A DNA stretch of 64,000 bases from Escherichia coli (GCF_003334815.1 NZ_QOWO01000017.1); one strand, 5' to 3'; positions 17,290 through 43,885 are shown, counted from the stretch's first letter. A program made the numbers and translations. The notes: generated by a model not told the origin, from the letters alone.

Positions 17290-18247
17290 AGCACTACTGA
17301 ACGCGGGACGTCAGACGTTAATGCTGGAGTTGCAGGAAGCAAGCCGTTTACCGGAACGTCTGGGCGATGATTTTGTTCGCGCCGCCAATATCATCCTGCA
17401 CTGTGAAGGCAAAGTGGTGGTTTCGGGAATTGGCAAATCGGGCCACATTGGTAAGAAAATCGCCGCAACGCTTGCCAGTACCGGCACTCCGGCTTTTTTT
17501 GTCCATCCGGCAGAAGCGCTGCACGGCGATCTGGGGATGATCGAAAGCCGCGATGTGATGCTGTTTATCTCTTACTCCGGTGGCGCGAAGGAACTGGATC
17601 TGATTATTCCGCGTCTGGAAGATAAATCTATCGCGCTGCTGGCGATGACCGGCAAACCGACGTCACCGCTGGGCCTGGCGGCAAAAGCGGTGCTGGATAT
17701 CTCCGTAGAACGCGAAGCCTGCCCGATGCACCTTGCGCCGACCTCCAGCACCGTCAATACCCTGATGATGGGTGACGCGCTGGCGATGGCGGTCATGCAG
17801 GCGCGCGGATTTAATGAAGAAGATTTTGCCCGCTCCCACCCAGCCGGGGCACTGGGCGCTCGCTTGCTGAATAAAGTGCATCATCTGATGCGCCGTGACG
17901 ATGCCATCCCACAGGTGGCGTTAACCGCCAGCGTGATGGATGCGATGCTGGAACTCAGCCGCACCGGTCTGGGGCTGGTGGCGGTATGTGACGCTCAACA
18001 ACAGGTACAAGGCGTCTTTACCGACGGCGATTTACGTCGCTGGCTGGTTGGCGGCGGCGCACTCACCACGCCAGTCAATGAAGCGATGACGGTCGGCGGC
18101 ACCACGTTGCAATCGCAAAGTCGCGCCATCGACGCCAAAGAGATCCTGATGAAGCGCAAAATCACTGCCGCACCGGTGGTGGATGAAAACGGCAAACTCA
18201 CCGGCGCAATAAACCTGCAGGATTTCTATCAGGCCGGGATTATTTAA
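17282..18247 (+). CDS. gutQ: D-arabinose 5-phosphate isomerase GutQ (SIS plus CBS domains)
   Basis: Translation; 8-nt overlap with srlR. Confidence 0.93.
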
Positions 18248-19758
18248 TCCTTCAATCCCAGACGTTTCGCCAGCCGATGCAGGTTGGCGACGTCGGTTTC
18301 CAGCATCCGCGCGCAGGCAGCCCAGTTGTGATGATTTTGTGCCAGTGCCTGACGAATAGTTTCACGCTGGAACGCTTCTGTCGCTTCACGCAGGTTTTGC
18401 TTAACAACGGGCACCGCCGCCACTTCTGGCGTCGGCAACGTCACCTCAGGAAAAGCAAAATGTTGCGCCTCAAGAATCACTTCATCGCCGCTGCGGGTGG
18501 CTCTCGCCAGAACTACCGCCCGATGAATAGCATGTTCCAGTTCGCGCACGTTTCCCGGAAAACTGTAGTGTTGCAGTAAATTTCGCGCTCCGGCACTTAA
18601 TACCACGCGGGAGAGCCCCTGCCGCAAACGACACTGCTCGCAGAAATACCCCGCCAGCAGAATGACATCATCGCCCCGCTCACGCAGCGGCGGCACCGAA
18701 AGTGGAAACACGCTCAGGCGATGAAACAAATCGGCGCGGAATCGCCCTGCCAGCACCTCTTCGCGTAAATCGCGGTTAGTCGCCGCCAGCACGCGCACAT
18801 CGACCCGCAAACAACGGTCATCGCCAACGCGCTGAATATCGCCATACTGCAACACCCTCAGCAGCTTGGCCTGCAATGCCAACGACAACTCGCCGATCTC
18901 ATCCAGAAACAGCGTGCCGTTATCCGCCATTTCAAACTTCCCGCTGCGATTACTGATAGCGCCAGTAAACGCTCCTTTCACATGCCCGAACAACTCACTT
19001 TCCGCCACACTTTCCGGCAGTGCAGCACAGTTGAGATAGACCAGCGGATTCACCGCCCGTGGCGAGGCTTCATGAATCGCTTTCGCCACCAGCTCCTTAC
19101 CGGTTCCAGTCTCACCGCTGATCAGGACGTTGAGATCGGACGCCGCCACAATCTCAATCTCTTTTTTCAGTTGCGTCATGCCAGGGGACAAGCCAATCAT
19201 CTGCGTCTGTTTCACCGCTTCAAACGGCGTGGCATCGCCTGGCAGCATATTCTGGCTTTCCAGTTGTTCAATCAGCAACGCATTGCTTAACGCTCCCGCC
19301 GCCAGCGCAGCAATCAGCCGTAGCTCTTCGTCGCTGAAAACATCGAACTGATCGGGCTGCATCCCGTCGAGCGTCAGTGCGCCGATCAGGTTTTGCCCGG
19401 CAAACAATGGCAGACCAACGCAGGCGTGAACCTTCAGACTCTCCTGCCCAGGAATCAAACCGTCATAGGGATCGGGCAATTCGCTGTCTGCGGGAAAGCG
19501 CACCACATCCCCGGCGCGGGCAATCGCTTCCAGCCGTGGATGCCCTTCCAGCGCAAAGCGTCTACCGAGTACATCCTTTGCCAGACCGTCGATGGCAAGC
19601 GGAATAAACTGCCGCGAATCGTAACGTAGCAACGCAGACGCATCGCACTCCAGCACCTGACGTAGCGTGGTGATCAGGCGCTGAAAACGATCCTGGTGAC
19701 CAATCCCACGCTGCAATTCGATGGCGATATTCGCCAGCACATCAACGGAAAAACTCAT
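18244..19758 (-). CDS. norR: Anaerobic nitric oxide reductase transcription regulator NorR (sigma54 enhancer-binding protein, GAF-AAA+-HTH), 504 aa
   Basis: Start moved to [21 protein letters not shown]+ motifs GETGTGKE and GAFTGA present. Confidence 0.93.
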
Positions 19759-19770
19759 CTTTGCCTCACT

Positions 19771-19826
19771 GTCAATTTGACTATAGATATTGTCATATCG
19801 ACCATTTGATTGATAGTCATTTTGAC
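19771..19826. promoter_or_regulatory. Three NorR enhancer sites of GT-N7-AC type: GTCAATTTGAC (19771..19781), GTCATATCGAC (19792..19802), GTCATTTTGAC (19816..19826)
   Basis: Three closely spaced 11-bp motifs in the norR-norV divergent region. Confidence 0.8.
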
Positions 19827-19881
19827 TACTCATTAATGGGCATAATTTTATTTATAGAGTAAAAACAATCAGATAAAAAAC

Positions 19882-19897
19882 TGGCACGCAATCTGCA
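19882..19897 (+). promoter_or_regulatory. sigma54 promoter of norVW (TGGCAC-N5-tTGCA; GG/GC spaced 12 bp)
   Basis: ctggcacgcaatctgca, 48 bp upstream of the norV ATG. Confidence 0.85.
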
Positions 19898-25574: not shown

Positions 25575-25722
25575 CAAATTCTCCAGCAATGACAGTTAAT
25601 GCGCCGATACATTCACAAATCATGCCAGTTTTTAATTTACTGTTATTTAAGGAAATTAATTTCTGTAATGCAGGAAAAACGATGTCATCGACACTAGTGA
25701 CGATGACATGTGATGACAATGT

Positions 25723-26736
25723 TTATCGCGAAGGAGCAATGAGTGAGTCGCGGCGGATCAGTTTTCCGCTGAAGGTTTTCGGCGGTGAGAAATCCCCGCC
25801 ATCGAGCATAAAAATCAGCCGTCCAATAATTTCCTGAATCATCTCAGTCACCGGAATTTTTACGCTGGAGAGCGCCGGAACGGTGTAGGGGGCAATAGCG
25901 ATATCATCGAATCCGATAACTGACACCTGCTCTGGCACCGCTACGCCGCGCTCGTGTAACGCTTTCATCGCACCTATCGCCATATCGTCGTTACTGGCAA
26001 CTAACGCGCTAAATTTAGCCCCACGTTCGAGCAACATTTCTACCCCTTCGGCCCCGCTGGCAGGCGTCCATTTACCGTTAGCGATAAGTTTTTCATTGAG
26101 CGCAATACCATGCTGCGCCAGCGCGTCTTTATACCCGGCAAGACGTTCAATGCTGGTGGGGGAATCCATCGAGCCGGTAAGGAAAGCAATCTCCTGATGC
26201 CCGGCGTTTATCAACTCTGCCACGGCGTTAAAACTGGTCTGTTTATGATCGCACCAGACGCTATGGCTGCTGTTTTTGCGCAGGCGGCGATTAAGCACCA
26301 TTATCGGCTGACTGTGCGCGTCAATGATGTCATCGATCTCATCCACGCTTAAAAAACGCGGGTAAATCATGATCGCGTCGCAGCGCAGATCCAGCAGATA
26401 CTGAATCGCCTGGCGCTCTTCTTCTGCGCTGTGTTTACCATCTGCCAATAGCAACTGCCGCCCTTTCTCTTCCGCCATTCGCGCGGCATGAAAGAGTAAT
26501 TCACTAAAATAAATGCCGTGGTAAAGCGTGTTGGTCACTACCAGCCCCAGCGTCTGAGTACTCTTCGCCGACAGATTGCGCGCCAGCAAGTTTGGACGGT
26601 AACCGCTCTCTTCTACCGCCTGAAACACGCGATCTTTAGTCTCCTGGCTGACGTAGCCATTACCTGAAAGCACGCGGGAAACGGTCGCTTTTGAAACCCC
26701 GGCGCGCTTCGCCACTTCCAGCATCGTCGTCATCAT
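25723..26736 (-). CDS. ascG: LacI-family repressor AscG of the cryptic asc (arbutin/salicin/cellobiose) operon; intact, no IS insertion
   Basis: LacI HTH (MTTMLEVAKRAGVSKATVSRVLSG); start assigned to the ATG with the best SD spacing (M22 of the ORF track), one-codon ambiguity. Confidence 0.88.
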   Translation of the reverse strand: MMTTMLEVAKRAGVSKATVSRVLSGNGYVSQETKDRVFQAVEESGYRPNLLARNLSAKSTQTLGLVVTNTLYHGIYFSELLFHAARMAEEKGRQLLLADGKHSAEEERQAIQYLLDLRCDAIMIYPRFLSVDEIDDIIDAHSQPIMVLNRRLRKNSSHSVWCDHKQTSFNAVAELINAGHQEIAFLTGSMDSPTSIERLAGYKDALAQHGIALNEKLIANGKWTPASGAEGVEMLLERGAKFSALVASNDDMAIGAMKALHERGVAVPEQVSVIGFDDIAIAPYTVPALSSVKIPVTEMIQEIIGRLIFMLDGGDFSPPKTFSGKLIRRDSLIAPSR

Positions 26737-34883: not shown

Positions 34884-36710
34884 TCAGGCTCCTCGTGAAA
34901 CAATAATCACCACCAGTACCGCCAGTTCAACCAGCGCCATCCGGCGGAACAGCAACGCACTCCCCTCGCACTGCCAGCCCGGCACCAGAGACACCGGATT
35001 CAGCCATTTGCGTAGTTTCAGCACCGGCGCAAACGCCTGTTTCACCGGCATGGCAAAACCGTGAGCGGTAATCACCATTGATTTTTCGTGGTCGTAACCG
35101 CACACCCAGGCCGCACCGCGGGAACGCGATGGCAAACGATCGCCTTTGCAAATCGCCATAATGATGAATGGCAGCAGCGGGCAGGCAATCAGCAGCAACG
35201 TGATCATCGGTTGAGAAACGGTGGTGTTAGCAGGCTCCAGCGGCAGAGGTACAGCAGCAGAGAGCATCGGCAGTAGCCACGGCGCAGCAACACCGCCAAT
35301 TACGCAGCAAATCGCCAGTGCCACTACGCTTACGCTCATCAGGAGCGGCGCACAGGTGGCGTTTTCGGCTTCTTTGGTGCGCGGCGCGCCGAGGAACGTG
35401 ACGCCATAGACTTTCGCCATACACATCACCGCCAGCGCACCGGTAATTGCCAGCCCCACAGCGAGCAGCGGCCCCAGCAGACGGGCAACAAACGCGCCAC
35501 TATTGCTCAGTTTGAAAAATGATTGATAGATAACCCATTCCCCGGCAAAACCATTCAGCGGCGGCAGCGCAGCCATTGCCATCAGCCCGACTAACATGGC
35601 GATGGAGATAACCGGCATTTTCTTGCCAATACCACCGAGTTTTTCGATATCGCGATGACCGGTACGGAACCAGACGCTCCCCGCCCCGAGGAACAGTACG
35701 CTTTTGAACAGGCTATGGTTAAGCAGATGGTACAGACCACCGACCAGGCCAAGAGCAATCAGCGCCGGTTGTTCGAGCGCGATACCCGTTACGCCAGCGC
35801 CCAGCCCCAGCAGGATGATGCCGATATTTTCCAGGGTGTGGTAAGCCAGCAGGCGCTGGATGTTGTGCTCCACCAGCGCATACAGACCACCGACAAACGC
35901 GGTGATCATGCCGAGCACCAGCAGCGCGATCCCCCACCACAGCGGTGCATTACCGCCCAGCAGTGACAGGGTTAAAATGCCCAGCAGGCCAATTTTCATG
36001 ACTACCGTAGAAAACAACGCGGCAGCTGGCGCAGAGGCGTTCGCATGTGCCTGCGGCACCCAGCCGTGCAGCGGAATAATCCCGGCCAGCAGGCCAAAGC
36101 CAATCACTCCGAGCAGCCAGATATCGGAACCGAGCGGCAGCTGTTGCATACGCATATCCAGCAGGCGCAGATCCAGCGTGCCGTAACGCTGCCACAGCAG
36201 CCAGCAAGCAATCGCCAGCAGCAGAGTGCCAAGACGCCCCAGCGCAAACCACAGTTTGCCCTCTTTGCTGTTGCTGGTGAGGAACACCGCGCACAGGGCC
36301 ATGATTTCGGCCATTACCACGAACATGCCGAGGTTGCTGGCAATGACGGCGCAGACGGCGGCAGCCATCAACATATTGATCTGCAAGCCGTTGCACTTCA
36401 CCTGCGCGTGGCGATGCCAGTCAATGTTGTAGAGGCTGACAAACAGACCGCACAGACCGAGCGTAATCAGCCAAATCGCGTTAAGCGGAGAGATTTGCAC
36501 ATCGTAGCTTACCAGCGACAGCGCACCGCTCACGCCAACCGCGCCAGTCAGTACAGTGAAGCCCGCGGCTGCCGTATACAGACTACCAACCGCGCCGCCA
36601 ATTCCAGCTATCCAGCCACTTAACGCTTTTTGAAAAGAAAAGAGAAATGCCAGAACAGCGGCGGCGACAAACCACGCCACGCCGCTATTGATCAGGGAAA
36701 TTGCGCTCAT
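34884..36710 (-). CDS. hycC: Formate hydrogenlyase membrane subunit HycC (NuoL/antiporter-like)
   Basis: 608-aa polytopic membrane protein. Confidence 0.93.
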   Translation of the reverse strand: MSAISLINSGVAWFVAAAVLAFLFSFQKALSGWIAGIGGAVGSLYTAAAGFTVLTGAVGVSGALSLVSYDVQISPLNAIWLITLGLCGLFVSLYNIDWHRHAQVKCNGLQINMLMAAAVCAVIASNLGMFVVMAEIMALCAVFLTSNSKEGKLWFALGRLGTLLLAIACWLLWQRYGTLDLRLLDMRMQQLPLGSDIWLLGVIGFGLLAGIIPLHGWVPQAHANASAPAAALFSTVVMKIGLLGILTLSLLGGNAPLWWGIALLVLGMITAFVGGLYALVEHNIQRLLAYHTLENIGIILLGLGAGVTGIALEQPALIALGLVGGLYHLLNHSLFKSVLFLGAGSVWFRTGHRDIEKLGGIGKKMPVISIAMLVGLMAMAALPPLNGFAGEWVIYQSFFKLSNSGAFVARLLGPLLAVGLAITGALAVMCMAKVYGVTFLGAPRTKEAENATCAPLLMSVSVVALAICCVIGGVAAPWLLPMLSAAVPLPLEPANTTVSQPMITLLLIACPLLPFIIMAICKGDRLPSRSRGAAWVCGYDHEKSMVITAHGFAMPVKQAFAPVLKLRKWLNPVSLVPGWQCEGSALLFRRMALVELAVLVVIIVSRGA

Positions 36711-37318
36711 TTAGCCTCTCCACTTTGAGCCTGCTGAAACAAGGTGAGATCGCCAAAGTCCGTGTTAAAGGTCAGCTCACGCTTACGTTTGCTGACGCGG
36801 GCGATATCGGTGTTATCCACCAGATGCAGGGCTTTAGTCGGGCACATCCGCACGCAGGCCGGACCTTGTTCATCAAAGCTACAAAGGTCACATTTGACGG
36901 CGATCGCGCGAATACCTGGCACCCAGTCAAGCAATGTGCTGACACGCGCCGGAGCAGGCGGTGCCGGTGGCGCTTTCGGGGTATTGGCGTTTGCCGGAAT
37001 ATCCAGCGGACGGCTGCCGGAAAATTCAATTGCGCCAAACGGGCAGGCGATGCCGCACAGCTTGCAGCTTACGCACAGGCTTTCATTCAACTGCACGGCC
37101 CCATCGACGCGGGTGATGGCGTTAACCGGGCAGACCACCGCGCAGGGTGCATCTTCACAGTGGTGACAGAGCTGCGGCGCAGATTCTTTTTCATTCAGCA
37201 TCACTCTCAGGCGCGGCATTGATTGCAGGCCGTGCTGGCGATGCGTCTCTGAACAGGCGGCCTCACAAGTGTGGCAGCCGATACAGAGCGTGGAGTCAGC
37301 AATTACAAAACGATTCAC
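36707..37318 (-). CDS. hycB: Formate hydrogenlyase Fe-S subunit HycB
   Basis: Four ferredoxin-type Cys clusters, 203 aa. Confidence 0.93.
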   Translation of the reverse strand: MNRFVIADSTLCIGCHTCEAACSETHRQHGLQSMPRLRVMLNEKESAPQLCHHCEDAPCAVVCPVNAITRVDGAVQLNESLCVSCKLCGIACPFGAIEFSGSRPLDIPANANTPKAPPAPPAPARVSTLLDWVPGIRAIAVKCDLCSFDEQGPACVRMCPTKALHLVDNTDIARVSKRKRELTFNTDFGDLTLFQQAQSGEAK

Positions 37319-37338
37319 CAGGCATTCCTCAGGTGATT

Positions 37339-37381
37339 GTCATTTTTGACGAAAACATGCCGATGAAATGTCATTTTCGAC
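37339..37381. promoter_or_regulatory. Paired GTCATTTT(T/C)GAC motifs in the hycB-hycA intergenic region, candidate FhlA upstream activating sequence
   Basis: gtcatttttgac (37339..37350) and gtcattttcgac (37370..37381), read directly from sequence. Confidence 0.5.
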
Positions 37382-37442
37382 ACTCATCGACACGCCCATC
37401 CCCAAACAGGCGTAACGCCTGCAAAACGGGCAAAGCCTCAGC

Positions 37443-37904
37443 TCATGCTGCCGGGCTTTGTCCCTTTACCAGTTGGCTTAAATTCACCGGCACATTGTTT
37501 TCAATAGCGGTGTATAAGCTGTCGTAAACGCCAGCGATTTTTTCGAGATAGTGTTCCAGAACCTGTTCGCGATCGCGGATGTTGACCTTGCCATCAATCA
37601 TGCCGTCAATGCTCAGTTGCGCCTGCGCAATCCGCTGTTTGTCTTCGCCATCTTTTGTTTCGACGTAATACTCGATGGTGTGGCTGTTAAAGCCATCCGC
37701 CAGGGTGACGTAAATGCGAAAATGTTCAAAAAGGACGAAACAGAGTTCTTTGTCCGGCGCGCAGCTCATGGCGTGATGCAGGCGCGCTTTCGATAACGTG
37801 ATCCCCTGAACCAGCGAATTGCAGTAGATGTGCCACTGGTCCTGTAGGCGACGATGCCGCTGTGCGATGTAATCGGCTTTCTCGCTTATTTCCCAAATAG
37901 TCAT
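37443..37904 (-). CDS. hycA: Formate hydrogenlyase regulatory protein HycA
   Basis: Translation and operon position, 153 aa. Confidence 0.92.
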   Translation of the reverse strand: MTIWEISEKADYIAQRHRRLQDQWHIYCNSLVQGITLSKARLHHAMSCAPDKELCFVLFEHFRIYVTLADGFNSHTIEYYVETKDGEDKQRIAQAQLSIDGMIDGKVNIRDREQVLEHYLEKIAGVYDSLYTAIENNVPVNLSQLVKGQSPAA

Positions 37905-37940
37905 TGTCAGGTTACCCGTTTAACAGAGATGCCAGCTTTA

Positions 37941-37956
37941 AGCATTTTTTGTGCCA
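37941..37956 (-). promoter_or_regulatory. sigma54 promoter of the hyc operon (TGGCAC-N6-TGCT on the minus strand)
   Basis: Reverse complement ttggcacaaaaaatgct with GG/GC spaced 12 bp, about 35 bp upstream of the hycA ATG. Confidence 0.75.
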
Positions 37957-38002
37957 ACTTTTAATTTATTGTTATTAAAGAGATTTTTAAGCTAAAGATG
38001 AA

Positions 38003-38042
38003 TTTCGTCGCCGTGTCGACGTGTCATTTCGACATCATCGAC
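38003..38042. promoter_or_regulatory. CGAC/GTCG-rich repeat block between the divergent hyc and hyp promoters, candidate FhlA UAS
   Basis: tgtcgacgtgtcatttcgacatcatcgaca contains overlapping direct and inverted repeats. Confidence 0.45.
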
Positions 38043-38069
38043 ATTATTCACCGCAGGGATAATCAACAC

Positions 38070-38085
38070 TGGCACAATTATTGCT
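38070..38085 (+). promoter_or_regulatory. sigma54 promoter of the hyp operon (TGGCAC-N6-TTGCT)
   Basis: tggcacaattattgct with GG/GC spaced 12 bp, about 30 bp upstream of the hypA ATG. Confidence 0.75.
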
Positions 38086-38115
38086 TGTAGCTGGCAATAG
38101 TTAATGGGAGGCGAT

Positions 38116-38466
38116 ATGCACGAAATAACCCTCTGCCAACGGGCACTGGAATTGATCGAACAGCAGGCCGCAAAACACGGCGCAAAACGCGTAACTGGGG
38201 TCTGGCTCAAAATTGGCGCATTTTCTTGTGTCGAAACCAGCTCTCTTGCCTTTTGTTTTGATCTGGTTTGCCGCGGCAGCGTGGCGGAAGGTTGTAAACT
38301 GCACCTCGAAGAACAAGAGGCCGAATGCTGGTGTGAAACATGCCAACAGTATGTGACGCTACTGACCCAGCGCGTCCGCCGCTGTCCACAGTGTCATGGT
38401 GACATGCTGCAGATTGTGGCAGACGACGGTTTACAGATTCGGCGGATAGAAATAGACCAGGAGTGA
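38116..38466 (+). CDS. hypA: Hydrogenase nickel-insertion protein HypA (116 aa)
   Basis: Start moved to MHEITLCQRALELIE; zinc CxxC...CxxC motifs. Confidence 0.93.
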   Translation: MHEITLCQRALELIEQQAAKHGAKRVTGVWLKIGAFSCVETSSLAFCFDLVCRGSVAEGCKLHLEEQEAECWCETCQQYVTLLTQRVRRCPQCHGDMLQIVADDGLQIRRIEIDQE

Positions 38467-38469
38467 GCG

Positions 38470-39342
38470 ATGTGTACAACATGCGGTTGCGGTGAAGGCA
38501 ACCTGTATATCGAGGGTGATGAACATAACCCTCATTCCGCGTTTCGTAGCGCGCCATTTGCCCCGGCGGCACGCCCGAAGATGAAAATCACCGGCATTAA
38601 AGCGCCTGAATTTACCCCCAGCCAGACTGAAGAAGGCGACCTGCATTACGGTCATGGCGAAGCGGGCACTCACGCACCGGGCATGAGCCAGCGTCGGATG
38701 CTGGAAGTCGAAATTGACGTGCTGGACAAAAATAACCGTCTGGCTGAACGCAACCGCGCGCGCTTTGCTGCCCGCAAGCAACTGGTGCTCAACCTGGTTT
38801 CCAGCCCTGGTTCCGGTAAAACCACCCTGCTGACGGAAACCCTAATGCGCCTGAAAGACAGCGTTCCGTGCGCAGTTATTGAAGGCGACCAGCAAACCGT
38901 GAACGATGCCGCACGCATTCGCGCTACCGGCACACCAGCGATTCAGGTGAACACCGGTAAAGGCTGCCATCTTGACGCACAGATGATTGCCGACGCCGCA
39001 CCGCGTCTGCCACTGGACGATAACGGTATTCTGTTTATCGAAAACGTTGGCAACCTCGTATGCCCGGCCAGCTTCGATCTCGGTGAAAAACACAAAGTGG
39101 CGGTGCTTTCCGTTACCGAAGGTGAAGACAAACCGCTGAAATATCCGCATATGTTTGCCGCCGCCTCGCTGATGCTGCTCAACAAAGTTGACCTGTTGCC
39201 GTATCTCAACTTTGACGTTGAAAAGTGCATCGCCTGCGCCCGCGAAGTCAATCCAGAAATTGAAATCATCCTTATTTCCGCCACCAGCGGCGAAGGGATG
39301 GACCAGTGGCTGAACTGGCTGGAGACACAGCGATGTGCATAG
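38470..39342 (+). CDS. hypB: Hydrogenase maturation GTPase/nickel-binding protein HypB
   Basis: N-terminal CTTCGC metal site, G1 motif GSPGSGKTT, 290 aa. Confidence 0.94.
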
Positions 39343-41806: not shown

Positions 41807-43885
41807 ATGTCATATACACCGATGAGTGATCTCGGACAACAAGGGTTGTTCGACATCACTCGGACACTATTGCAGCAGCCCGATCTGGCCTCGCTGTGTG
41901 AGGCTCTTTCGCAACTGGTAAAGCGTTCTGCGCTCGCCGACAACGCGGCTATTGTGTTGTGGCAAGCGCAGACTCAACGTGCGTCTTATTACGCGTCGCG
42001 TGAAAAAGACACCCCCATTAAATATGAAGACGAAACTGTTCTGGCACACGGTCCGGTACGCAGCATTTTGTCGCGCCCTGATACGCTGCATTGCAGTTAC
42101 GAAGAATTTTGTGAAACCTGGCCGCAGCTGGACGCAGGTGGGCTATACCCAAAATTTGGTCACTATTGCCTGATGCCACTGGCGGCGGAAGGGCATATTT
42201 TTGGTGGCTGTGAATTTATTCGTTATGACGATCGCCCCTGGAGCGAAAAAGAGTTCAATCGTCTGCAAACATTTACGCAGATCGTTTCTGTCGTCACCGA
42301 ACAAATCCAGAGCCGCGTCGTTAACAATGTCGACTATGAGTTGTTATGCCGGGAACGCGATAACTTCCGCATCCTGGTCGCCATCACCAACGCGGTGCTT
42401 TCCCGCCTGGATATGGACGAACTGGTCAGCGAAGTCGCCAAAGAAATCCATTACTATTTCGACATTGACGATATCAGTATCGTCTTACGCAGCCACCGTA
42501 AAAACAAACTCAACATCTACTCCACTCACTATCTTGATAAACAGCATCCCGCCCACGAACAGAGCGAAGTCGATGAAGCCGGAACCCTCACCGAACGCGT
42601 GTTCAAAAGTAAAGAGATGCTGCTGATCAATCTCCACGAGCGGGACGATTTAGCCCCCTATGAACGCATGTTGTTCGACACCTGGGGCAACCAGATTCAA
42701 ACCTTGTGCCTGTTACCGCTGATGTCTGGCGACACCATGCTGGGCGTGCTGAAACTGGCGCAATGCGAAGAGAAAGTGTTTACCACTACCAATCTGAATT
42801 TACTGCGCCAGATTGCCGAACGTGTGGCAATCGCTGTCGATAACGCCCTCGCCTATCAGGAAATCCATCGTCTGAAAGAACGGCTGGTTGATGAAAACCT
42901 CGCCCTGACCGAGCAGCTCAACAATGTTGATAGTGAATTTGGCGAGATTATTGGCCGCAGCGAAGCCATGTACAGCGTGCTTAAACAAGTTGAAATGGTG
43001 GCGCAAAGTGACAGTACCGTGCTGATCCTCGGTGAAACTGGCACGGGTAAAGAGCTGATTGCCCGTGCGATCCATAATCTCAGTGGGCGTAATAATCGCC
43101 GCATGGTCAAAATGAACTGCGCGGCGATGCCTGCCGGATTGCTGGAAAGCGATCTGTTTGGTCATGAGCGTGGGGCTTTTACCGGTGCCAGCGCCCAGCG
43201 TATCGGTCGTTTTGAACTGGCGGATAAAAGCTCCCTGTTCCTCGACGAAGTGGGCGATATGCCACTGGAGTTACAGCCGAAGTTGCTGCGTGTATTGCAG
43301 GAACAGGAGTTTGAACGTCTCGGCAGCAACAAAATCATTCAGACGGACGTGCGTCTAATCGCCGCGACTAACCGCGATCTGAAAAAAATGGTCGCCGACC
43401 GTGAGTTCCGTAGCGATCTCTATTACCGCCTGAACGTATTCCCGATTCACCTGCCGCCACTACGCGAGCGTCCGGAAGATATTCCGCTGCTGGCGAAAGC
43501 CTTTACCTTCAAAATTGCCCGTCGTCTGGGGCGCAATATCGACAGCATTCCTGCCGAGACGCTGCGCACCTTGAGCAACATGGAGTGGCCGGGTAACGTA
43601 CGCGAACTGGAAAACGTCATTGAGCGCGCGGTATTGCTAACACGCGGTAACGTGCTGCAGCTGTCATTGCCAGATATTGTTTTACCGGAACCTGAAACGC
43701 CGCCTGCCGCAACGGTTGTCGCCCTGGAGGGCGAAGATGAATATCAGTTGATTGTGCGCGTGCTGAAAGAAACCAACGGCGTGGTTGCCGGGCCTAAAGG
43801 CGCTGCGCAACGTCTGGGGCTGAAACGCACGACCCTGCTGTCACGGATGAAGCGGCTGGGAATTGATAAATCGGCATTGATTTAA
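41807..43885 (+). CDS. fhlA: Formate hydrogenlyase transcriptional activator FhlA (sigma54 enhancer-binding protein), 692 aa
   Basis: Start moved to MSYTPMSDLGQQGLFDITR; AAA+ motifs GETGTGKE and GAFTGA, C-terminal HTH. Confidence 0.94.
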   Translation: MSYTPMSDLGQQGLFDITRTLLQQPDLASLCEALSQLVKRSALADNAAIVLWQAQTQRASYYASREKDTPIKYEDETVLAHGPVRSILSRPDTLHCSYEEFCETWPQLDAGGLYPKFGHYCLMPLAAEGHIFGGCEFIRYDDRPWSEKEFNRLQTFTQIVSVVTEQIQSRVVNNVDYELLCRERDNFRILVAITNAVLSRLDMDELVSEVAKEIHYYFDIDDISIVLRSHRKNKLNIYSTHYLDKQHPAHEQSEVDEAGTLTERVFKSKEMLLINLHERDDLAPYERMLFDTWGNQIQTLCLLPLMSGDTMLGVLKLAQCEEKVFTTTNLNLLRQIAERVAIAVDNALAYQEIHRLKERLVDENLALTEQLNNVDSEFGEIIGRSEAMYSVLKQVEMVAQSDSTVLILGETGTGKELIARAIHNLSGRNNRRMVKMNCAAMPAGLLESDLFGHERGAFTGASAQRIGRFELADKSSLFLDEVGDMPLELQPKLLRVLQEQEFERLGSNKIIQTDVRLIAATNRDLKKMVADREFRSDLYYRLNVFPIHLPPLRERPEDIPLLAKAFTFKIARRLGRNIDSIPAETLRTLSNMEWPGNVRELENVIERAVLLTRGNVLQLSLPDIVLPEPETPPAATVVALEGEDEYQLIVRVLKETNGVVAGPKGAAQRLGLKRTTLLSRMKRLGIDKSALI

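Follow-up and report, generated by a model that had tools for sequence, protein, structure and literature searches.

The 64-kb window of E. coli DNA analysed here (that is, the whole stretch of 64,000 nucleotides) carries the genes of two sigma54 activators, fhlA (41807-43885, plus strand) and norR (18244-19758, minus strand). GTCA...GAC motifs in the control region of the hyc and hyp genes look much like the NorR sites upstream of norV (from 19945, plus strand). What does this likeness mean? A first-pass annotation of the DNA raised two possibilities, namely that FhlA and NorR recognize each other's sites, or that the enhancer sites of the two activators share an ancestry.

The region in question is defined by hycB (36707-37318, minus strand), hycA (37443-37904, minus strand), and hypA (38116-38466, plus strand). 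These gene names, like those of fhlA, norR, and norV, match the annotation. A 1-kb stretch around the hyc/hyp region matches E. coli K-12 MG1655 with 100% identity and was found in all 5,426 complete E. coli genomes. The hyc/hyp control region is already known as a textbook sigma54 system, and the probability that the region examined here is this divergent control region of the formate regulon is about 0.9.

Divergent sigma54 promoters between hycA and hypA

The promoter of hycABCDEFGHI (TTGGCACAAAAAATGCT, 37941-37957, minus strand) has the exact sequence of the sigma54 ChIP-seq site OS27, and the promoter of hypABCDE-fhlA (TGGCACAATTATTGCT, 38070-38085, plus strand) corresponds to site OS28. 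The published E. coli sigma54 ChIP-seq table lists TTGGCACAAAAAATGCT for hycA, CTGGCACAATTATTGCT for hypA, CTGGCACGCAATCTGCA for norV, and CTGGCATGATTTGTGAA for hydN. The distance of 12 bp from GG to GC that had been described for both the hyc and hyp promoters can be read directly in the sequence. In other words, both have the GG-N10-GC arrangement of -24/-12 elements together with reported sigma54 occupancy. Further evidence comes from genomic SELEX with the sigma54 holoenzyme, which recovers the hycA/hypA spacer, and from Salmonella, whose orthologous hyc/hyp promoters are sigma54-bound in ChIP-chip and sigma54-dependent. Annotation, ChIP-seq, and genomic SELEX thus agree on a hyc/hyp control region with divergent sigma54 promoters, for which the sigma54 mapping papers credit Lutz et al. 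(1990). Both promoters are conserved in an alignment of hycA-hypA spacers, in which the hyc side keeps TGCCA and AAGCA. A loose sigma54 pattern is not enriched in the window (7 matches versus 7.65 expected). The hyp promoter is the sole zero-mismatch match to TGGCAYN5TTGCW in the 64 kb, and it has the top motif score among the five sigma54 ChIP-seq sites of the window.

The hyc and hyp promoters also form a 27-nt inverted repeat (37930-37956 and 38070-38096, 81% complementary). The repeat runs beyond the -12 element into the start regions, with TGGCACAA....TGCTT..AGCTGGCA on each side, and its downstream part on the hyp side is not kept in Salmonella or Citrobacter. A separate sigma54-like motif, TGGCACATCTACTGCA, is located within hycA on the coding strand (37820-37835, minus strand). 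This motif ends in CTGCA, like the norV promoter, and is absent under hycA in the published sigma54 ChIP-seq table.

Potential RNA structures occur at the other end of hycA. A 19-nt inverted repeat (37419-37472; 79% complementary, with a 16-nt loop) extends across the hycA stop codon, and a smaller hairpin, CAGGCG-TAA-CGCCTG (37408-37422), lies between hycA and hycB. Hairpins of other sequence occupy the hycA-end position in other genera. The hairpins at 37408-37472 may serve in the processing or stability of the mRNA between hycA and hycB. An Rfam scan of 36500-39000 returned nothing relevant (a single sub-threshold microRNA match), and a scan of 37250-38200 for sigma70 promoters and terminators gave none above shuffles.

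Two predicted FhlA enhancers

For FhlA footprinting at the hyc/hyp operons, reviews cite Schlensog (1994), Hopper (1994), and Leonhartsberger (2000). Published models of the FhlA site disagree. A matrix derived from 13 characterised sites has the consensus TG(A/T)C-(A/G)A(A/T)(A/G)AT-G(A/T)CA, another published consensus is CATTTCGTACGAAATG, and the site is modelled either as a 16-bp palindrome or as a 14-bp TGWC-N6-GWCA. The consensus CATTTCGTACGAAATG includes CATTTCG, which recurs in both the hyc and hyp enhancer blocks. The two top matches of the FhlA matrix in the 64 kb fall in these two motif blocks. Conservation of the blocks was assessed in an orthologue sample obtained by a HycI scan with one genome per species, which gave 80 loci from about 20 enterobacterial genera. 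After tblastn placement of the flanking genes, 66 hycB-hycA and 65 hycA-hypA spacers were cut out, and the motif blocks are kept beside the orthologous hyc/hyp genes in these spacers. The published matrix and this conservation place the GTCA...GAC motifs, which had been proposed as enhancer elements, in an FhlA enhancer.

The hyp enhancer is located in the hycB-hycA spacer. Two motifs of the form GTCATTTT(T/C)GAC had been flagged there, correctly in both sequence and coordinates: GTCATTTTTGAC at 37339-37350 and GTCATTTTCGAC at 37370-37381. Predicted FhlA site 1 (37339-37354) consists of GTCATTTTTGAC and a conserved GAAA, and sits 20 nt upstream of the hycB start codon. It scores 12.1 by the published FhlA matrix (rank about 8 in the window), and [G/A]TCAWTTWTGAC followed by GAAA, with 12-bp spacing, is present in 66 of 66 enterobacterial loci. 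Predicted FhlA site 2 (TGTCATTTTCGACA, 37369-37382) is the best match of the 64 kb by the same matrix (17.1-17.6 bits, the maximum being 17.7). In orthologues this site reads TGYC...CGACA, with a length of 13 bp in 34 loci and of 14 bp in 30; it switches between 11- and 12-bp forms across genera. The orthologue alignment also identified a second CGACA (37388-37392), which repeats the right arm of site 2 directly at a period of 10 bp. The gap from CGACA to the next TCGACA is invariant in 65 of 65 loci. Within the 64 kb, 3 places match the 12-bp pattern GTCAWWWWYGAC, with 4 strand-counted matches versus 0.24 expected, and none of 100 shuffles reached 4. The third place, GTCGAAATTGAC at 38707-38718, is inside the hypB coding sequence, where it codes for the residues VEID, and probably matches by chance.

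How are the sites of the hyp enhancer arranged? The distance from the start of site 1 to the start of site 2 is 31 bp in the window, 30-31 bp in 63 of the hycB-hycA spacers, and 20-21 bp in two Enterobacter loci (L067 and L079). These distances equal three or two helical turns. Compared with the other loci, the two Enterobacter loci have lost one full helical turn and retain the same DNA face. The 31- or 21-bp distance, together with the 10-bp direct repeat, therefore suggests that the hyp-enhancer sites lie on one side of the helix. FhlA has been reported as an oligomer that touches one DNA face, and the two- or three-turn spacing agrees with that report. The hyp enhancer thus appears to have a one-face arrangement, as would suit an oligomer.

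The hyp enhancer also contains an NsrR operator. The 23-mer AAATGACATTTCATCGGCATGTT named in an NsrR ChIP-seq study of strain CFT073 is identical in the window (37353-37375, minus strand). That study reports the second strongest peak by fold enrichment at this place (16-fold, with its summit 59 bp upstream of hycB) and nowhere mentions FhlA. The operator lies between the two FhlA sites and overlaps both: it starts 3 bp after the site 1 motif and reaches 6 bases into the second flagged motif (37370-37381). It matches the ideal ytfE site at 13 of 23 positions, and its left half is conserved in Escherichia, Salmonella, and Citrobacter only. Based on the CFT073 data, the NO sensor that binds at the hyp enhancer is NsrR, not NorR.

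The second block, the hyc enhancer (38003-38043), is defined by FhlA matrix matches and conservation and is putatively bound by FhlA. It had been described as a CGAC/GTCG-rich repeat block, and it does contain 2 GTCG and 3 CGAC. Its conserved core GACGTGTCATTTCGACA (38018-34) is followed by a second CGACA (38039-43), and positions 38030-38043 are the second-best FhlA matrix match of the 64 kb (16.1 bits). The consensus GACaTGTCATttCG.Ca...tcG.CAt is kept across genera, and the block GACRTGTCATTTCGWCA...TCGWCAT is conserved in the hycA-hypA spacers. Pattern and matrix scans locate within it the hyc core (TGTCATTTCGACA, 38022-38034), which is an FhlA core site whose geometry, GT-N7-AC, is that of NorR. 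Of the 65 hycA-hypA loci, 55 contain the core TGTCAWHTCGWCA; its right arm is GTC in 41 of these 55 and GAC in the other 14, E. coli having GAC. An IHF-like site (TAACAATAAATTA, 37962-37974, minus strand) lies in an AT-rich stretch between the hyc promoter and the hyc enhancer, and its TTGAT core is conserved in orthologues. It has one mismatch to WATCARNNNNTTR, and the IHF consensus is weak, with 112 matches in the window versus 74 expected. The hyc promoter reportedly uses IHF.

FhlA is a sigma54 activator that responds to formate and has GAF, AAA+, and Fis-type HTH domains. The features described above fit a model in which it would bind two clusters of TGTC/GACA-type elements. One cluster, which precedes the hyc start by about 100 bp and lies between the promoters, would drive hyc, and IHF would bend the DNA there. 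Likewise, the other, which precedes the hyp promoter by about 700 bp and lies in the hycB-hycA spacer, would drive hyp. This is the assignment of enhancers to promoters that we infer, and work from the Böck laboratory reportedly found that the hycA-hycB spacer enhances hyp and the inter-promoter block enhances hyc. A full-text search of the literature gave no usable statement making the hycA-hycB spacer the hyp enhancer. An FhlA site can have an arm spacing of 11 or 12 bp, and one of its arms can be GAC or GTC, whereas neither the 10-bp direct repeat nor the helical phasing of the sites varies. As a result, the FhlA consensus sequences in the literature under-describe the site, and neither published model covers the 13/14-bp switching of hyp site 2.

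Likeness of the FhlA and NorR sites

The NorR region of the window has the same sequence as the 66-bp probe that Tucker et al. (2010) used for NorR. It contains three NorR sites, GTCAATTTGAC (19771-81), GTCATATCGAC (19792-802), and GTCATTTTGAC (19816-19826), the third of which had been given with the right sequence and coordinates. The norV sigma54 promoter (19881-19897, ChIP-seq site OS25) lies downstream of them. In the norR-norV spacers of 10 genomes, three GTC-N5-GAC sites are arranged in 21- and 24-bp steps with zero indels, and the AT(A/T) flanks of the sites are conserved. Activation of norV requires all three sites, and the published NorR core is GT-N7-AC. NorR reads three 11-bp dyads, flanked by AT(A/T) and invariant in their array, via a recognition helix very different from that of FhlA.

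The likeness noted in the first-pass annotation is real and is closer than was claimed. The pattern GTCAWWWYGAC occurs at 5 places in the 64 kb (8 strand-counted matches versus 0.44 expected; none of 100 shuffles reached 8), of which three are the NorR sites and the other two are in the hyc enhancer (38023-33) and in the emrB coding sequence (535). The match in emrB (GTCATTATGAC, 535-545) is the fourth-best NorR matrix match at 12.8 bits, with no sigma54 promoter noted nearby; it is treated as chance rather than as a NorR element because it lies inside coding sequence. The hyc core TGTCATTTCGACA has NorR spacing and is identical to NorR sites 1, 2, and 3 at 10, 11, and 10 of 13 positions. It had also been claimed that the FhlA-type motifs differ from the third NorR site by a single extra base in the spacer. 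This holds for the two flagged 12-bp motifs (GT-N8-AC), but not as a consistent difference, the hyc core being 11 bp and site 2 being 13 or 14 bp. Since the hyc core has NorR spacing and site 2 is 13 bp long in half of the species, the extra base is not what separates the two kinds of site, and the orthologue counts (34 versus 30 loci) rule out a one-base spacer as the FhlA/NorR discriminator. The separation comes from flanks, site number, and array geometry instead. A NorR-type three-site array was looked for in the hyc and hyp enhancers, and none was present. The two flagged motifs do not have the NorR core GT-N7-AC, which among these enhancers occurs at the hyc core (38023-33) only.

Could NorR bind the FHL enhancers, above all at 38022-34, or FhlA bind NorR site 2, so that NO and formate signals are mixed? 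The fit of the hyc core to GT-N7-AC and its identity with NorR site 2 at 11 of 13 positions speak for such cross-talk, as do the findings that one NorR site suffices in vitro to bind NorR and stimulate its ATPase and that FhlA tolerates both 11- and 12-bp spacing across species. However, a 17-bp NorR matrix built from the sites of ten related genomes gives the true sites 20.3-24.7 bits, whereas the score falls to 4.98 bits (rank 18) for the hyc core and to between -3.4 and -13.8 for the 12-bp motifs, even if a matrix made from ten related genomes may over-penalise flanks. In other words, the extended NorR site including its flanks is not matched at the hyc core or the 12-bp motifs. Conversely, the best FhlA matrix score within the NorR region is 7.1 bits (rank 168). 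The recognition helix of FhlA (KRTTLLSRMKR) and that of NorR differ at base-contacting positions, and NorR needs all three of its sites for activation. In 41 of 55 loci the hyc core has a GTC arm, which is incompatible with the AC of the NorR core; the NorR-compatible GAC arm is not conserved (14 of 55 loci) and, as the minority state, is not under selection for NorR. Furthermore, norVW is the sole NorR target in E. coli known from the literature, genomic SELEX ranks NorR as a local regulator with few targets, and comparative genomics places NorR sites at NO-detoxification genes only. The suggested cross-recognition thus finds no support and is highly improbable. We infer that cross-binding is absent, although, judged by sequence alone, a NorR dimer could bind weakly to the hyc core as a single site. 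A likelier way for NO to reach these enhancers than cross-wiring of NorR and FhlA would be competition of NsrR with FhlA at 37353-75, which is a reasonable idea. If true, the NsrR site atop the FhlA sites of the hyp enhancer would provide a concrete route for NO control of hydrogenase maturation genes.

The idea of a common ancestry holds that there was one ancestral GAF-type activator, and that both descendants kept a TGTCA...TGACA site whose spacing drifted by one base. FhlA and NorR are both GAF-type activators, as had been stated, with a GAF-AAA+-HTH architecture by Pfam. They are 39% identical over the GAF linker and AAA+ domain, their alignment extends into the GAF domain, which other paralogues are without, and their half-sites are identical. 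However, an all-against-all BLAST of 11 E. coli sigma54 activators (the nine beyond FhlA and NorR taken from the MG1655 record) ruled out NorR as the nearest paralogue of FhlA, which is HyfR (520 bits). NorR versus FhlA scores 243-259 bits, level with ZraR, AtoC, and GlrR, and the FhlA-NorR alignment ends before the DNA-binding domain, whereas those with ZraR, AtoC, GlrR, and NtrC cross it. In the 22-residue HTH core, FhlA agrees with HyfR at 19 of 22 residues but with NorR at 7 of 22, equal to its agreement with PspF or AtoC. Pfam HTH_8 covers FhlA 645-684 (E = 4e-4) and is partial in NorR, without the recognition helix (E = 0.15); the NorR HTH is an outlier of the Fis family. In a comparative study, the consensus for the NorR family as a whole is just GT-N7-AC and a Vibrio paralogue has GATGT-N7-ACATC, which makes the GTCA arm a detail of the enterobacteria. 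Nor is the half-site confined to FhlA and NorR, as GlrR recognizes TGTC-N10-GACA. A special common ancestry of the sites is accordingly without support, the HTH likeness being at paralogue level only, and such an ancestry is unlikely. There is a somewhat better, still small, chance that other readers of the DNA shape part of the sequence, the NsrR operator (AAATGTCATTT) keeping TCATTT of site 2 and the translation-initiation region of hycB keeping site 1. The NsrR ChIP-seq site does span 37353-75, and site 1, the most conserved block of the spacer, ends right before the 20 nt that precede the hycB start codon. However, Klebsiella, Kluyvera, Kosakonia, and Buttiauxella retain TGTCAYTT(T)CGACA although they have lost the left NsrR half (AACATG...AAATG), and this core is also found at fdhF and in the hyc enhancer, which is not transcribed. 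NsrR and translation would therefore be only a local, additional constraint on what is read here as an FhlA enhancer of the formate regulon.

The likeness between the FhlA and NorR sites is thus shallow, consisting of a short common half-site and an A/T-rich spacer. We regard it as a chance agreement between half-sites that are widespread among sigma54 activators, and not as shared specificity. All this matters little beyond housekeeping, and the site details could aid the modelling or engineering of FhlA enhancers.

Comparison with related enhancer systems

How does the region compare with known systems? It is that of the E. coli formate regulon (fdhF, hyc, hyp, and hydN-hypF), with the same genes, the same promoters, and the same TGTC/GACA and TTTCGWC units, and there is no difference in kind. 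The fdhF enhancer of the same genome carries TTTCGTCA three times and GTCAAAACTGAC, which are units common to the hyc/hyp enhancers. Upstream of hydN, another enhancer (25680-25730, minus strand) contains a near-perfect 28-bp palindrome, ATGTCATCGTCACTAGTGTCGATGACAT, with TGTC/GACA and CATCG units as in the hyc/hyp enhancers in a different arrangement. The hyc enhancers of Klebsiella and Raoultella have a similar GACATGTCGATGAC form. Relative to the published formate-regulon site models, the orthologues add the 13/14-bp switching of site 2, the GAC/GTC switching of the hyc core, and the invariant 10-bp repeat.

The NorR enhancer of norVW is alike in its TGTCA-(A/T)-YGACA core, its sigma54 promoter, and its GAF-type activator. 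IHF has been reported between enhancer and promoter at norVW. The norVW enhancer differs in its three fixed-step sites, its invariant 11-bp spacing, its AT(A/T) flanks, and the recognition helix that reads it. NsrR operators (AAGATGCATTT-N-AAATGCATCTT) are represented by the 23-bp site with a strong ChIP-seq peak inside the hyp enhancer, and NsrR is an Rrf2-type repressor, unlike the sigma54 activators FhlA and NorR. GlrR enhancers contain the same TGT(C) half-site, read by the Fis-type HTH of a sigma54 activator. NifA enhancers (TGT-N10-ACA) likewise contain the TGT(C) half-site. The spacer of GlrR and NifA enhancers is 10 bp, whereas that of NorR and FhlA sites is 5 or 6 bp, which shows that the TGT(C) half-site is common and that spacing carries the specificity.
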